Source: a virus (lineage: Duplodnaviria; Heunggongvirae; Uroviricota; Caudoviricetes). Taken from it: DNA of 4,334 bases. Where the stretch lies: the IMG/VR virus record IMGVR_UViG_2671181050_000015, positions 1 to 4,334 of that record. The stretch is one strand, 5' to 3'. The position numbers and the translations under genes are program-made. This document shows, one piece after another, positions 223-4,334 of this stretch. How positions within the stretch are numbered: position 1 is the first letter of the stretch; each line of letters begins with the position of its first letter. A model generated the notes under the pieces. That model made no database searches and had not been told where the DNA came from. It was given only the letters and a program-made list of their open reading frames with translations.

Positions 223-818
223 GCGAAATTAATTATCAGGCACTGCGTGAAAAGGCAGAGAAAGCAACTAAAGGAAGCTACATCGTAGGGCATACATCTG
301 TTAACCAACACGGCAATTTAACAGGAGTTTTTGTTTGTCAAAAATGGAAAGGAGAACCCGGTGGCGTGATTGCGGAATGTCATGTTAACTGCCTGATTGA
401 AACAGATGCTCAGGCTTATGCAAACGCTGAATTCATAGCAGAGGCTAACCCGGCTACCGTGCTGGCACTGCTGGATGAACAGGAAAGAAACCAGCAATAC
501 ATCAAACGCCGCGACCAGGAGAACGAGGATATTGCGCTTACGGTTGGGAAGCTGCGCGTTGAGCTTGAAGCAGCAAAATCAAAACTCAACGAGCAGCGCG
601 AGTATTACGAGGGAGTTATCTCTGATGGGTGCAAGCGTATTGCTGAACTGGAAGCGCGGGAAGTTCAATTACCGACTCGCTACGACCTTCGATATGGACA
701 CCCGATAAATGCAGATGAGCGACAAGTCATGATACCTAAAGAAAATGGCAGTTGGCTTTACCTGATTGACCTAGAACACGCATTACGCGTCGCTGACATT
801 CGCATCAAAGGAGAGTGA
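219..818 (+). CDS. Ea22-like (ead/Ea22 family) coiled-coil prophage protein, 199 aa
   Basis: GTG start at 219 preceded by GAGG (209-212) at 6 nt spacing. No in-frame ATG until near the C-terminus, so GTG is the likely start. N-terminal NYQALREKAEKA... and ANAEFIAEANPATVLALLDE followed by a heptad-rich central region (KLRVELEAAKSKLNEQ) match my recollection of ead/Ea22-like prophage proteins. Family call is from memory. Confidence 0.6.
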   Translation: MSEINYQALREKAEKATKGSYIVGHTSVNQHGNLTGVFVCQKWKGEPGGVIAECHVNCLIETDAQAYANAEFIAEANPATVLALLDEQERNQQYIKRRDQENEDIALTVGKLRVELEAAKSKLNEQREYYEGVISDGCKRIAELEAREVQLPTRYDLRYGHPINADERQVMIPKENGSWLYLIDLEHALRVADIRIKGE

Positions 819-819
819 T

Positions 820-1335
820 ATGGCGTTAACACACCACGAACTCTGTCAGATTGCGTACAAGTTCCTTAAGCGCAACGGGTTCAAGGTTTGCTTTCATGAC
901 CGCTTTGTTGCTGTAACCAGTACCGGAGAACAGCCAGATGCTATGGGATTCAGAAATTCAGCATCATGCCTGATAGAGGCGAAGTGTTCTCGTGCTGACT
1001 TGTTGGCAGATAGAAAAAAGCGTTTCCGTAAAAATCCCTCACTTGGCATGGGCGACTGGCGATTCTTTATTAGTGAGCCGGAAATTATTTCAGTTGAGGA
1101 TTTACCTCCCGGCTGGGGATTACTTCACGTTGTTAACGGAAGAGTACGGAAAGTACATGGATGGCCCAGGGGTAATTGCTGTTGGGGTAATCCTGACGAT
1201 AAGCCATTTACCGGGAATAAGCAGGTTGAATGCGATTACATGTTATCTGCATTAAGGCGCATGGAGTTGAGAGGGCACCTTAATGAAATATATGACGGTG
1301 TGATTGTTAATAAGAAAGAAGGAAACGCGGCATGA
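820..1335 (+). CDS. PD-(D/E)xK nuclease-fold protein (possibly MmcB-like), 171 aa
   Basis: ATG at 820 with AAGGAG (808-813) 6 nt upstream and 1 nt after the previous stop. Canonical signature present: P39-D40 (nt 934-939) then E53-A-K55 (nt 976-984), i.e. PD-x12-ExK. Stop overlaps the next start (ATGA 1332-1335). Confidence 0.6.
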   Translation: MALTHHELCQIAYKFLKRNGFKVCFHDRFVAVTSTGEQPDAMGFRNSASCLIEAKCSRADLLADRKKRFRKNPSLGMGDWRFFISEPEIISVEDLPPGWGLLHVVNGRVRKVHGWPRGNCCWGNPDDKPFTGNKQVECDYMLSALRRMELRGHLNEIYDGVIVNKKEGNAA

Positions 1336-2276
1336 TCACTATTACCAAAGGGCGACTGCTGACAATCAAGCAGTGGCGCGAAACATACGGACCGGGTAGC
1401 AACGTTGTACTGCCAGCAGAAGAAGCGGAAGAACTGGCACGGATTGCACTGGCATCATTGGAAGCAGATCCAGTTAAACGAGTTAACTCAGATCAGATGC
1501 ACCGAGTCTGCTTAGAAGCTAATCGCTATTTAGATAAATATGACGCGATGGCAAAAGAGGTAAATAAGTTGCTTGGACGCATCGCCCCACCAGCGCCAGT
1601 ATTTAACGGCGAATACGGTGACGCATATCAGGGCGCTCGTGAAGACCTGTCCATCTGGAAACGGCGAGCGCTTGAAGCTGATGAGCACGTTCGGCGACTG
1701 GAGCAAATCAATGACCACATGGTGAAAGAGGCGCAGGGAGAATCACGCATGGGCGAGCCTGTAATACGTGAGCCAGCACCGGTAGTGCCTGAAGAAGCAA
1801 CTCCGGAAAACGTAGAAATGCTCTCTGGCTATGTTTCAACGTACAAATTAACCGATAGCGAGCGCGATATTGCTGCCGAAATATGGAACGCCTGCCGCGC
1901 CGCCATGCTTCAGTCCGGAAACTTTCGGGAAAACAAGAATTCGTCAACCAATAATTTTCGGGAAATCGCGGAAACGTCAACCAACTATCCGGCAATTCCT
2001 AGTGAGGTGTTGTCCGCAATCCTGAAGGTTGCCAGGATTCGTGCCGATTTCGATGATTTTGACGGTGACAGGCGAGGTATCGGTGATTGTCTGGATGAGG
2101 CTGAGCAAGAGCTTATCGTTACCATTAACAAATATGCCAGTCAGTTGGCAGCAGAACCTATAGCGCCTAATGACGTTCGAGAGCAGACAGCCATTCCACA
2201 AGTTCCGGTAACTCCGGATGGTTGGATAAGCTGTAGTGAGCGAATGCCGGACGACAGGCAGGAGGTGAATCAATGA
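1332..2276 (+). CDS. Hypothetical prophage protein, 314 aa, ending inside a DUF551-like motif (DGWISCSERMPDDRQEV)
   Basis: ATG at 1332 overlapping the upstream stop; GAAGGA 8 nt upstream. Long uninterrupted frame with ordinary codon composition. The C-terminal WISCSERMPDD resembles the start of the DUF551 domain (W-I-x-[VC]-x-[DE]-R-[LM]-P-[ED]) but the ORF stops about 15 residues into it. Contains an internal 11-aa tandem repeat (NFRENKNSSTN / NFREIAETSTN). Confidence 0.6.
   Translation: MITITKGRLLTIKQWRETYGPGSNVVLPAEEAEELARIALASLEADPVKRVNSDQMHRVCLEANRYLDKYDAMAKEVNKLLGRIAPPAPVFNGEYGDAYQGAREDLSIWKRRALEADEHVRRLEQINDHMVKEAQGESRMGEPVIREPAPVVPEEATPENVEMLSGYVSTYKLTDSERDIAAEIWNACRAAMLQSGNFRENKNSSTNNFREIAETSTNYPAIPSEVLSAILKVARIRADFDDFDGDRRGIGDCLDEAEQELIVTINKYASQLAAEPIAPNDVREQTAIPQVPVTPDGWISCSERMPDDRQEVNQ
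1920..1985 (+). repeat. Imperfect 33-bp tandem direct repeat (2 copies) inside the 314-aa ORF
   Basis: Unit 1 (1920-1952) aactttcgggaaaacaagaattcgtcaaccaat versus unit 2 (1953-1985) aattttcgggaaatcgcggaaacgtcaaccaac. 25 of 33 positions identical, in frame, giving the 11-aa duplication NFRENKNSSTN / NFREIAETSTN. Confidence 0.7.
2260..2267 (+). promoter_or_regulatory. Shine-Dalgarno (AGGAGGTG) for the 27-aa peptide gene
   Basis: AGGAGGTG at 2260-2267 is an 8-nt perfect complement to the 16S rRNA 3' end, placed 5-7 nt before ATG 2273. It lies inside the last codons of the upstream ORF. Confidence 0.6.
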
Positions 2277-2356
2277 GCTGGCCTGATGCAATCGTAACTC
2301 TGGGGGTGGTATTCGCAGCAGCGTTTGTTGTGTTCTCGATTTGTCGATGGGGATAA
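2273..2356 (+). CDS. Small hydrophobic single-pass membrane peptide, 27 aa (MSWPDAIVTLGVVFAAAFVVFSICRWG)
   Basis: Not in the supplied ORF track (too short). ATG 2273 overlaps the upstream stop (ATGA) and follows a perfect SD at optimal spacing. A roughly 19-residue hydrophobic stretch is flanked by an acidic N-side (D5) and a basic C-side (R25). Fills the only otherwise non-coding 84-nt gap in a compact operon. Confidence 0.5.
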   Translation: MSWPDAIVTLGVVFAAAFVVFSICRWG

Positions 2357-2360
2357 CCAC

Positions 2361-2603
2361 ATGTTCGCTTTGATTCAACGCGGTCAGATATACACGGACA
2401 GAGCTGGATACCCCGTGGTGATTACTCGCATCACTGAGCACTCAGTGTTCTTTCGACGGATGGACGGACGATCCGGGCGGGTACGCATTGGTGAGTTAAA
2501 CTGCCTGTTCGAACATATTGACCACCAGGAGTACCGCAAAATTCTCGCGGACACTGAGCAGGAAAAGCACCTGAAAAAATTACGAGCCATAAAAAGGAAG
2601 TAA
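2361..2603 (+). CDS. Small prophage protein, 80 aa, DUF4222-like with basic C-terminal tail
   Basis: ATG at 2361 preferred over the TTG at 2325 used by the ORF track: it sits 4 nt after the peptide stop, GGGGA lies 8 nt upstream, and it avoids overlapping the peptide gene. Pattern IYTDRAGYPVVITRI...VFFRR resembles small DUF4222-type prophage proteins as I recall them. C-terminus KHLKKLRAIKRK is strongly basic. Confidence 0.5.
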   Translation: MFALIQRGQIYTDRAGYPVVITRITEHSVFFRRMDGRSGRVRIGELNCLFEHIDHQEYRKILADTEQEKHLKKLRAIKRK

Positions 2604-2606
2604 AGA

Positions 2607-2741
2607 ATGAATAAAGCATTTGAACGATGGGTCCACCAGCGTTACGGCAATCGCTATGACCTGACGCGAGATGTTGACGGCTTCTACTGTCGTGAAGTTG
2701 TGAAGCGAATGGTTGAAGTGTGGTGCCACTGCCGTGGATGA
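2607..2741 (+). CDS. Small Cys/His/Trp-rich protein, 44 aa (MNKAFERWVHQRYGNRYDLTRDVDGFYCREVVKRMVEVWCHCRG)
   Basis: Not in the ORF track. ATG 2607 lies 3 nt after the upstream TAA, with AAGGAAG (2594-2600) 6 nt upstream. Ends at TGA 2739-2741, 18 nt before the xis start. Contains C28, C41, C43, H10 and H42 (WCHC). Confidence 0.45.
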   Translation: MNKAFERWVHQRYGNRYDLTRDVDGFYCREVVKRMVEVWCHCRG

Positions 2742-2759
2742 AAATTTTATGAGGTTGGC

Positions 2760-3014
2760 ATGCAGACAATCATCTATCAGATAACCCCCAGCAAATGGTG
2801 TACGGAGAGAGTCCTCATTGCATCAACAGGGCTAAAGCCTGGCACCATTGAGCGGGCAAGAAGAAAGTCATGGATGCAGGGAAAAGAATACCGCCATTAC
2901 GCTGTAGAAGGTGATCCGGGGCACTACAGTGAATGCCTGTACAACATCGAAGAAATTATGCGATGGATCGAAAACCAGAAACAACCAGGTGCCAAAAATG
3001 CAAGTTCCGGTTAA
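2760..3014 (+). CDS. xis: Putative excisionase / recombination directionality factor, 84 aa
   Basis: ATG 2760 with GAGG (2751-2754) upstream. Small basic protein immediately upstream of and co-directional with the integrase. The pattern W-x(~11)-TIERARR-x2-W-x2-GKEY parallels the lambda-Xis-type arrangement (W...TVRRW...GREY) as I recall it. Confidence 0.6.
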   Translation: MQTIIYQITPSKWCTERVLIASTGLKPGTIERARRKSWMQGKEYRHYAVEGDPGHYSECLYNIEEIMRWIENQKQPGAKNASSG

Positions 3015-3047
3015 CCTGTTAATGCTCCTGGACGTCTGGGAGGTTTA

Positions 3048-4334
3048 ATGAGTAACGCATCATACCCGACAGGCGTTGAAAACCATGGAGGATCACTCCG
3101 TATATGGTTTCACTATAATGGCAAACGTGTCAGAGAAAACCTCGGTGTTCCTGACACAGCCAAAAACCGGAAGATCGCTGGTGAACTTCGCACTTCCGTT
3201 TGTTTTGCAATCAGAATGGGGAGTTTCGACTACGCCGCGCAGTTCCCTAATTCCCCTAACCTGAAACACTTTGGTCTGGGAAAAAGAGAGATAACCGTTA
3301 AGGCACTTTCGGAAAAATGGTTGGACCTTAAGAAAATTGAGATTTGTGCGAATGCACTTAACCGTTACCAGTCAGTAATTAAAAACATGTTACCAATGTT
3401 AGGTGAAAAAAAACTGGTTTCATCCATAACAAAAGAGGATTTACTTTTCGTAAGGAGAGATTTGTTGACCGGTTACCAAAAGCTTTCTAATGGAAAGACT
3501 TCTTCCATAAAAGGGCGCTCAGTGGTCACGGTAAACTACTATATGACAACCATAGCTGGAATGTTTCAATTTGCAACAGATAATGGTTATACCTCAGGAA
3601 ACCCATTTAACGGTCTGGCTCCCTTAAAAAAGTCCAAGGTAAAACCAGATCCTCTCACCCGTGACGAATTTATTCGTTTTATTGAGGCTTGCCGTCATCA
3701 ACAAACAAAAAACCTGTGGATTCTCGCTGTATACACGGGTATTCGTCACGGGGAGTTGGTATCGCTGGCATGGGAAGATATAGACCTTAAAGCAAGGACT
3801 ATAACCATCCGTAGAAATTATACAAAACTTGGCGAATTCACTCCACCAAAAACCGATGCAGGCACCGGAAGGACAATTCATCTGGTTCAACCAGCTATTG
3901 ATGCTCTTAAAAGCCAGGCGGAAATGACCATGCTTGGAAAGCAACATTCTGTAGAGGTGAAGCAGAGGGAATATGGGAGAACTGCTGTGCATAAATGCAC
4001 TTTTGTTTTTAGTCCTCAGGTAACAAAACAGCAGCAGTTGTCCGGACCTCACTACAAGGTTGACTCCATCAGGGAGTCATGGACAAGTATCTTAAAACGC
4101 GCAGGTCTGAGACACAGAAAATCGTACCAATCCAGGCATACTTATGCATGCTGGTCACTTGCCGCTGGAGCTAATCCTAGTTTTATCGCAAGCCAGATGG
4201 GCCACATAAACGCACAAATGGTATTCAATGTTTACGGAGCATGGATGAAAGACAACAATCACGAACAGATAGAACTCCTTAACAAAAGACTATCTGAAAG
4301 TGTCCCATGTATGCCCCATAAGAAAGTGGGGTAA
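3048..4334 (+). CDS. int: Tyrosine-type site-specific integrase, 428 aa, with N-terminal arm-type DNA-binding domain
   Basis: ATG 3048 with GGGAGG (3038-3043) upstream; TAA at 4332-4334. N-terminal PTGVENHGGSLRIWFHYNGKRVRENLG is the arm-binding (DUF3596-type) motif seen in IntS/IntR-like enterobacterial prophage integrases. Catalytic signatures present: TGIRHGEL (Arg box I), SRHTYA (box II) and GH...VYGAW (His and catalytic Tyr). More AT-rich than upstream genes. Confidence 0.93.
   Translation: MSNASYPTGVENHGGSLRIWFHYNGKRVRENLGVPDTAKNRKIAGELRTSVCFAIRMGSFDYAAQFPNSPNLKHFGLGKREITVKALSEKWLDLKKIEICANALNRYQSVIKNMLPMLGEKKLVSSITKEDLLFVRRDLLTGYQKLSNGKTSSIKGRSVVTVNYYMTTIAGMFQFATDNGYTSGNPFNGLAPLKKSKVKPDPLTRDEFIRFIEACRHQQTKNLWILAVYTGIRHGELVSLAWEDIDLKARTITIRRNYTKLGEFTPPKTDAGTGRTIHLVQPAIDALKSQAEMTMLGKQHSVEVKQREYGRTAVHKCTFVFSPQVTKQQQLSGPHYKVDSIRESWTSILKRAGLRHRKSYQSRHTYACWSLAAGANPSFIASQMGHINAQMVFNVYGAWMKDNNHEQIELLNKRLSESVPCMPHKKVG

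Follow-up and report, generated by a model that had tools for sequence, protein, structure and literature searches.

A truncated DUF551 domain in a lambdoid Escherichia coli prophage as the probable product of an in-frame deletion between short direct repeats

The window, that is, the whole 4,334-nt stretch of DNA analyzed here, comes from a lambdoid E. coli prophage, in which it forms the int-proximal end of the early-left operon. All its substantial open reading frames (ORFs) are encoded on the + strand. Its features are the following:

1-222, + strand: TraR/DksA zinc-finger protein
219-818, + strand: Ead/Ea22-like protein
820-1335, + strand: 171-aa ORF
1332-2276, + strand: 314-aa ORF, an Eaa-like early-left protein with a DUF551 remnant and a native tail (Pfam, homologues)
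2204-2257, + strand: left linker of the DUF551 cassette, encoding PVTPDGWISCSERMPDDR and holding the domain remnant
2258-2266, + strand: probable deletion junction, with the sole kept copy of the 9-nt repeat GCAGGAGGT (Q-E-V)
2267-2276, + strand: native tail and stop (last Val base, N-Q-stop; tail PPQEVNQ-stop in L008)
2273-2356, + strand: 27-aa hydrophobic peptide gene (MSWPDAIVTLGVVFAAAFVVFSICRWG)
2361-2603, + strand: DUF4222 gene (Pfam PF13973, E = 8e-14; syntenic in BP-4795, YYZ-2008, L005 and L008)
2607-2741, + strand: 44-aa ORF (phrog_3871, E = 3e-31; same place in BP-4795 and YYZ-2008)
2760-3014, + strand: excisionase (DUF1233), xis (Pfam PF06806, E = 2e-29)
3048-4334, + strand: tyrosine integrase, int (Pfam PF12167 and PF00589)

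Directly 3' of int, the related prophages L006 (strain 266917_2, 99% identical to window 797-4334) and L008 carry mlrA (yehV). None of the small proteins of the window has a match in NCBIfam or PADLOC, and their matches in PHROGs are all to families of unknown function.

The 314-aa protein ends in GWISCSERMPDDRQEVNQ, also written VPVTPDGWISCSERMPDDRQEVNQ, with the stop codon immediately after. An earlier note, made from the sequence alone, had recognized in this end the start of a DUF551 domain, and the Pfam profile (PF04448) bears out this reading: in a whole-protein HMM comparison, residues 297-312 (G297-V312) match profile positions 1-16 of 68 with a score of 23.3 bits (E = 1.2e-4), above the gathering cut-off of 22 bits. 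The kept Q-E-V residues fill profile positions 14-16 and at the same time belong to the tail of the protein. The match cannot be put down to chance, because about 2400 of 5426 complete E. coli genomes have DUF551 genes whose starts are 98-100% identical to the 51 nt of the left linker at 2204-2254, and a genome can carry as many as 8 copies. The remainder of the domain, as the earlier note had also held, is not encoded downstream in any frame. A tblastn comparison of five different DUF551 cores against the six frames of the window gave a best E-value of 0.011 over 20 residues, and no other ORF of the window has a Pfam match to DUF551. With 16 of 68 profile positions, and lacking both the HWMPLPEPP motif and the beta-strand core of a complete domain, the 314-aa protein is a DUF551 remnant rather than a DUF551 domain protein.

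Homologues of this protein do not all end where it does; had they done so, the earlier note would have counted it against a truncation. P0002 (364 aa), P0004 (367 aa), P0005 (365 aa) and P0009 (375 aa) are 98-99% identical to it over residues 1 to ~305, and diverge after GWISCSERMP into full DUF551 domains, each of them different. All four domains nonetheless close with (T)HWMPLPEPPQEV(N/K/R)(Q) and a stop, so that PLPEPPQEV is found near the end. Since full-length homologues share such tails, the QEVNQ-stop of the window is the native tail of the gene, and not a random read-out past a breakpoint. At the DNA level, alignment with BP-4795, YYZ-2008, PhiR5_1, L005 and L008 places the end of similarity at ~2254 and its resumption at 2258, with the intact relatives holding 132-183 additional bases between these positions; the alignment to prophages with full-length DUF551 that the earlier note had in mind thus locates not only where similarity ends, but also where it starts again. 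The L008 prophage matches the window at 99.5% over 1331-2254 and at 97.6% over 2258-4334 (2077 nt, from the repeat on), and between these stretches it has a DUF551 core of 162 bp where the window has 3 bp. It also has the same QEVNQ-stop tail (P0004; PPQEVNQ-stop), followed by the same peptide gene, DUF4222, the 44-aa ORF, xis, int and mlrA. From 1331 onward, L008 is in effect the window without the deletion.

The core that appears to have been lost is best represented by L138, a locus of E. coli 20AR0300 that was located with a chimeric BLAST query after looser patterns run on IMG/VR had yielded, among left-flank variants, a core family of the form MPDDGQEVVVQTHSGW...PPQEVK-stop, with Q-E-V at either end of the domain. 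Over the 325 nt of window 1939-2263, L138 does not differ at a single base; it continues past the junction into an intact core, PDGWISCSERMPDDRQEVVVQTHSGW...HWMPLPEPPQEVK and stop, which in full reads PDGWISCSERMPDDRQEVVVQTHSGWRYIAFYESHSGLFYDSPEGDVEYVLVTHWMPLPEPPQEVK; after the junction, its protein thus runs QEVVV...PPQEVK-stop. Unlike in the window, the gene downstream is a DUF4752 gene. Q-E-V is encoded twice in L138, as GCAGGAAGT at 2554 and as GCAGGAGGT at 2695, with a spacing of 141 bp (47 codons), whereas the window, with coordinates read directly from its sequence, holds a single GCAGGAGGT at 2258-2266. The repeat is therefore present at both ends of the missing segment in L138 and in one kept copy in the window, and collinearity extends up to the repeat on both sides, on the left with L138 and on the right with L008. 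On the strength of these sequence comparisons, we consider that the change is, with a probability of roughly 0.88, an internal in-frame deletion of 141 bp (47 codons) between two 9-nt direct repeats. By the same token, the 314-aa gene is very probably a deletion allele of a gene for an Eaa-like protein of ~361 aa with a C-terminal DUF551 domain. The earlier note had set a breakpoint near 2270 and suggested that microhomology be sought there; the breakpoint does lie within ~10 nt of that figure, its exact position being 2258-2266, and the microhomology takes the form of the two 9-nt repeats lying 141 bp apart in L138.

As the size of the deletion is divisible by three, translation stays in frame and the gene keeps its tail and its stop. 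The kept repeat also contains a Shine-Dalgarno sequence, AGGAGG (2260-2265), seven bases 5' of the ATG (2273) with which the 27-aa peptide gene begins; this same ATG is overlapped by the TGA stop of the 314-aa ORF (CAATGA). With both elements retained, the ribosome-binding site of the peptide gene, and the translational coupling that probably links it to the DUF551 gene, are left untouched. The junction exists in a second form in L139 (strain CMZE063), which reads GCAGGAAGTGAATCA and has the A of the left copy where the window has the G of the right copy. Among 63 fetched loci, 62 have the GAG form and one the GAA form. On sequence grounds, the L139 form would fit a crossover elsewhere in the same repeat, although a point mutation at a later stage would account for it equally well. 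The two repeats of L138, which is the one intact left-flank relative found, differ at one base, and the exact microhomology in the true parent may accordingly be put at 6 to 9 nt. The DDRQ codons of the short allele are those of a single core type, that of L138 and P0121.

No single intact parent emerged from the genomes searched. A further chimeric query, which joined an L138-type core to the window-type tail and peptide, found the two together in none of 5426 complete E. coli genomes, and IMG/VR gave no matches to a pattern combining the left flank with a base other than the G of the deleted allele (GAGCGAATGCCGGACGACAGGCAGH), a pattern that also bars a QEV-type core, the type that turned out to be parental. 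The sole match in a search with the reconstructed 75-aa parental domain, and the closest protein, was P0121, with a DDRQEVVV core and a QEVNRG tail. The intact parental core type is itself rare, being present in 7 of 5426 genomes. The missing parent weakens the argument for an intramolecular event, while leaving that for a repeat-mediated exchange as it was.

The structural consequences of such a deletion can be gauged from predicted models. In the AlphaFold2 model of the parental-type domain of P0121 (pLDDT 80), strands are predicted at residues 18-24, 27-35, 40-42 and 54-59, and all four fall inside the deleted interval; the small domain that they compose weakly resembles an SH3/Tudor-like barrel. 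A PDB sequence search with P0004 gave no match. The model of the 314-aa protein has a low pLDDT (42.5) and is mostly helical, with coil at residues 275-314, which at any rate agrees with the remnant being unstructured. The truncated protein should keep its mostly helical N-terminal 296 residues and lose whatever DUF551 binds. PMC10834534 presents DUF551 as a portable domain, of unknown function, that occurs on Ea22 variants, YfdS and MazZ-like enzymes. The literature located on DUF551 mentions it only in these terms, and nothing useful was found in that on DUF4222 and PhiR phages.

The deleted allele is by no means confined to the window. Of 5426 complete E. coli genomes, 157 have its junction (window 2204-2330, 127 nt), and the best 60 of these 157 matches are 100% identical over the 127 nt; the junction is also present in 58 IMG/VR contigs and in one deposited phage genome, PhiR5_1. 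The record of this phage lists E. coli C as its host, which suggests that the DUF551 domain is dispensable for growth. The peptide allele of the window type occurs in 183 genomes, about 86% of which have the null allele upstream. In the 63 fetched loci, the null allele always precedes the same peptide allele, and at least seven different sequences are found directly 5' of its PVTPDGW linker; protein clusters of 314, 308, 259, 253, 249 and 247 aa have their tail in common. The deleted gene has also decayed further in one derivative, P0003, where an extra 31-nt deletion fuses the ORF into the peptide DNA in another frame. On the right-hand side of the cassette, the DNA encoding HWMPLPEPPQEV (~35 nt) is conserved across all core types. 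Between the invariant left and right DNA linkers, at least 13 unrelated DUF551 cores occur in proteins whose remaining sequence is 98-99% identical. The presence of at least seven upstream contexts before the null allele indicates that the true recurrent mosaic junction is the 51-nt left linker, and not the deletion point.

As the earlier note had observed, a hydrophobic peptide gene follows the truncated ORF, namely the 27-aa ORF at 2273-2356. The note had gone on to propose that a recombination near 2270 had truncated one module and grafted on another, making 2273-2741 a likely recently acquired moron cluster. A moron is an autonomous cargo gene that has inserted between conserved genes of a phage, and the small genes of unknown function that come after the truncated domain, near the end of the prophage, do look like morons to that extent. 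The truncation itself stands; the graft does not, since the QEVNQ-stop tail, the CAATGA overlap and the genes downstream are all the native continuation of the gene and reproduce the 3' end of full-length DUF551 genes. The peptide gene, DUF4222, the 44-aa ORF, xis and int follow full-length DUF551 in the same order in BP-4795, YYZ-2008, L005 and L008, and PhiR5_1 also carries the genes of 2273-2741 in this order. The 27-aa ORF is found in 15 distinct DNA variants, each of exactly 27 codons with the pattern MxWP[DE]A...ICRWG, after intact as well as deleted DUF551 genes, of which it is the normal neighbor. Neither does composition set the region apart, as GC content is flat (0.46-0.52) and 2273-2741 resembles its surroundings. 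A consensus scan of 1900-3100 found two promoter-like sites against 1.3 expected from shuffled sequence, and two terminator-like sites against 1.4. Both promoter-like sites (2029-2057 on the + strand, 1980-1951 on the - strand) lie outside 2273-2741, one terminator-like site falls inside (2432-2447, within the DUF4222 ORF) and none brackets the cluster. Contrary to what is expected of a moron, these genes are thus not absent from relatives, have no promoter and terminator of their own above chance, show no compositional shift and overlap the stop codon of the gene upstream. A recent acquisition of 2273-2741 is ruled out by this synteny, flat GC and lack of excess sites, and the grafting event as a whole is very improbable.

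The sequences themselves show the repeats, flanks that are collinear with intact relatives, how large the deletion is and that it is in frame, and where the allele occurs; from these, we infer the following course of events. The parental core would have encoded Q-E-V both at the start of its first beta-strand (GCAGGAAGT) and in its C-terminal tail (GCAGGAGGT), at a distance of 141 bp. Slipped mispairing of the replicating DNA, or some other short-homology exchange between the 9-nt repeats, would then have removed one repeat and the 47 codons lying between the two, taking away all four predicted beta-strands. Being in frame, the deletion would have preserved the native tail with its stop, the Shine-Dalgarno sequence within the Q-E-V codons and the stop/start overlap. 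The resulting allele would later have spread along with the module 3' of it (peptide, DUF4222, xis and int), and homologous recombination in the 51-nt left linker would have brought it together with different N-terminal modules. The order of these steps could also be reversed if the short form had come first, as an empty site between linkers that later received DUF551 cores, and the cassette-like behavior of at least 13 unrelated cores between invariant linkers lends this notion some appeal. Nonetheless, the short allele is without the right linker THWMPLPEPP common to every cassette and carries the DDRQ codons of one core type (L138, P0121), and short alleles agree at the junction in 62 of 63 loci, while full-length cores are deeply diverged. 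Near-identical short alleles set against diverged cores point to a young, derived allele, and we regard an ancestral short form as highly unlikely. An artefact of sequencing or assembly, in which the missing segment would have been lost through collapse of the short repeats that flank it, is less credible still, given that nine-nucleotide repeats do not collapse assemblies and that 157 independent complete genomes share the identical junction with 58 IMG/VR contigs and a deposited phage genome.

A more serious contender is an unequal intermolecular exchange at the 9-nt Q-E-V sequence between two lambdoid phages, co-resident or co-infecting, in which the left Q-E-V of a donor with an L138-type core recombined with the right Q-E-V of a donor of the window-type tail, peptide and int. 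Such an exchange and an intramolecular deletion would yield one and the same product, but in the first case the junction would truly be one between phages. This possibility draws on the fact that L138, the best intact left-flank relative, has another gene (DUF4752) downstream, that L008, the best right-flank relative, has another DUF551 core, and that no genome among the 5426 complete E. coli genomes combines the L138-type core with the window-type tail and peptide. On the other hand, the parental core is so rare (7/5426) that an unsampled parent is unsurprising, and slippage over 141 bp within one molecule requires a single step. Furthermore, the conservation of the right linker HWMPLPEPPQEV means that ordinary homologous recombination would readily create the parent that such a deletion needs. 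For this last reason, we favor intramolecular slippage in an unsampled parent, and deem unequal exchange between two phages rather unlikely.

The locus can be set against several known systems. Full-length DUF551 proteins of lambdoid prophages include ORF5 of BP-4795 (YP_001449242.1), gp05 of YYZ-2008 (YP_002274141.1), the V2 variant of Ea22 from Stx phages and YfdS of CPS-53. The window gene resembles those encoding such proteins in its left linker, PVTPDGWISCSERMP, in its QEV tail and stop, and in its place 5' of the peptide gene, DUF4222, xis and int, and its N-terminal region is shared almost unchanged with the full-length P0002 and P0004; it differs in that its protein is without the 47 codons, the four predicted strands and HWMPLPEPP. 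Deletions between short direct repeats, arising by slippage or by short-homology illegitimate recombination, are said to have been classically described for E. coli lacI. The deletion favored here looks much like them, with 9-nt repeats bearing a one-base mismatch, one copy kept and collinear flanks; nothing unusual distinguishes it, other than that it happens to be in frame and to spare a downstream ribosome-binding site. Comparative genomics of HK97/HK022 and HK620 has reportedly revealed that lambdoid phages exchange modules through conserved boundary or linker sequences. In the case at hand, a left linker of 51 nt and a right linker of ~35 nt are likewise nearly invariant, while the core and the outer modules vary. 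As opposed to the classical linkers, however, those of the DUF551 cassette are within a coding region and bracket a protein domain, instead of lying between genes, and the window junction is at a microhomology inside the cassette, not at a linker. The event is therefore an ordinary one of a known class, a short-direct-repeat deletion in a linker-mediated lambdoid mosaic, with nothing that falls outside known kinds.

It could be argued, though we think it quite improbable, that the DUF551 core is a hypervariable cassette under diversifying selection, and that the null cassette is a selected escape allele. If so, the deletion would have removed a domain recognized by a host or rival-phage system, yet left the N-terminal function and peptide expression intact, and this would explain why 157 of 5426 genomes have the null allele, found in about 86% of those with this int-proximal module, against 7 genomes for the parental core. 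Otherwise, the finding matters little beyond annotation. Many RefSeq records (e.g. WP_249827470.1 and WP_244573921.1), including those of proteins identical to that of the window, are named 'DUF551 domain-containing protein', when what they contain is a 16-residue remnant that cannot fold as a domain. The locus also shows neatly how a microhomology deletion that stays in frame can pass for a mosaic junction. More generally, the cassette-like swapping of cores between two linkers could help anyone seeking the function of DUF551, and the conserved, mostly unannotated gene for a 27-aa membrane peptide that overlaps the DUF551 stop codon may likewise be of help in establishing the role of this domain.

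In the Eaa-like proteins of these prophages, at least 13 mutually dissimilar DUF551 cores are found between an invariant PDGWISCSERMP and (T)HWMPLPEPPQEV (proteins P0001-P0120; window 2204-2276). The N-terminal ~296 residues of the proteins carrying these dissimilar cores are otherwise 98-99% identical, and the DNA of both linkers flanking the core is nearly invariant. The DUF551 core behaves as a hypervariable cassette. An alternative architecture is seen in the PhiR12 phages (hits H210-H214) and in protein cluster P0018, where an Ea22-like protein with neither left linker nor DUF551 core has a C-terminus made up of the right linker and tail (...ASLEALPEPPQEVNQ*), pointing to the right linker as a recombination point too.

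The gene that follows the truncated DUF551 domain encodes a short hydrophobic peptide:

2273-2356, + strand: 27-aa hydrophobic ORF, peptide MSWPDAIVTLGVVFAAAFVVFSICRWG

This ORF has a strong Shine-Dalgarno sequence and its start ATG overlaps the stop codon of the upstream gene. Across 15 distinct DNA variants its length is exactly 27 codons, W3 and P4 are invariant and the ICRWG end is conserved. The RefSeq records of two related prophage loci (L006 and L139) have no annotated CDS at this position, and the ORF is probably a genuine small membrane protein missed by annotation.

The deletion allele itself is found in more than one form. In L139 (E. coli CMZE063), positions 2550-2570, equivalent to window 2258-2272, carry the same deletion with the junction GCAGGAAGT in place of GCAGGAGGT, a variant in which the Shine-Dalgarno of the peptide gene is weakened and which represents either an independent deletion whose crossover fell elsewhere within the repeat, or a point mutation that arose afterwards. 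The P0003 protein cluster (336 aa, 130 member sequences) is a null-allele derivative with an additional 31-nt deletion, corresponding to window 2257-2288, that puts GACGACAG directly against CAATCGTAAC, so that the ORF runs out of frame into the DNA of the peptide gene (...ERMPDDSNRNSGGGIRSS...). This derivative shows that decay at the deletion site has gone on.

Two further observations concern regions upstream of the DUF551 domain:

820-1335, + strand: 171-aa ORF with a PD-(D/E)xK-like motif
L138 1844-2710; L004 1997-2998; L005 1946-2557: strings of partial/frameshifted pseudogenes (PGAP)

The 171-aa ORF has no match in Pfam, NCBIfam or PADLOC; its PD-(D/E)xK-like motif (…EQPDAMGF…CLIEAKC…) suggests a nuclease fold. 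In several prophages (L004, L138) the homologous gene carries a frameshift or is only partial. PGAP annotates a run of partial or frameshifted pseudogenes upstream of the DUF551 domain in several prophages. The Eaa-like gene is subject to frequent decay, with an intact DUF551 core or without one.
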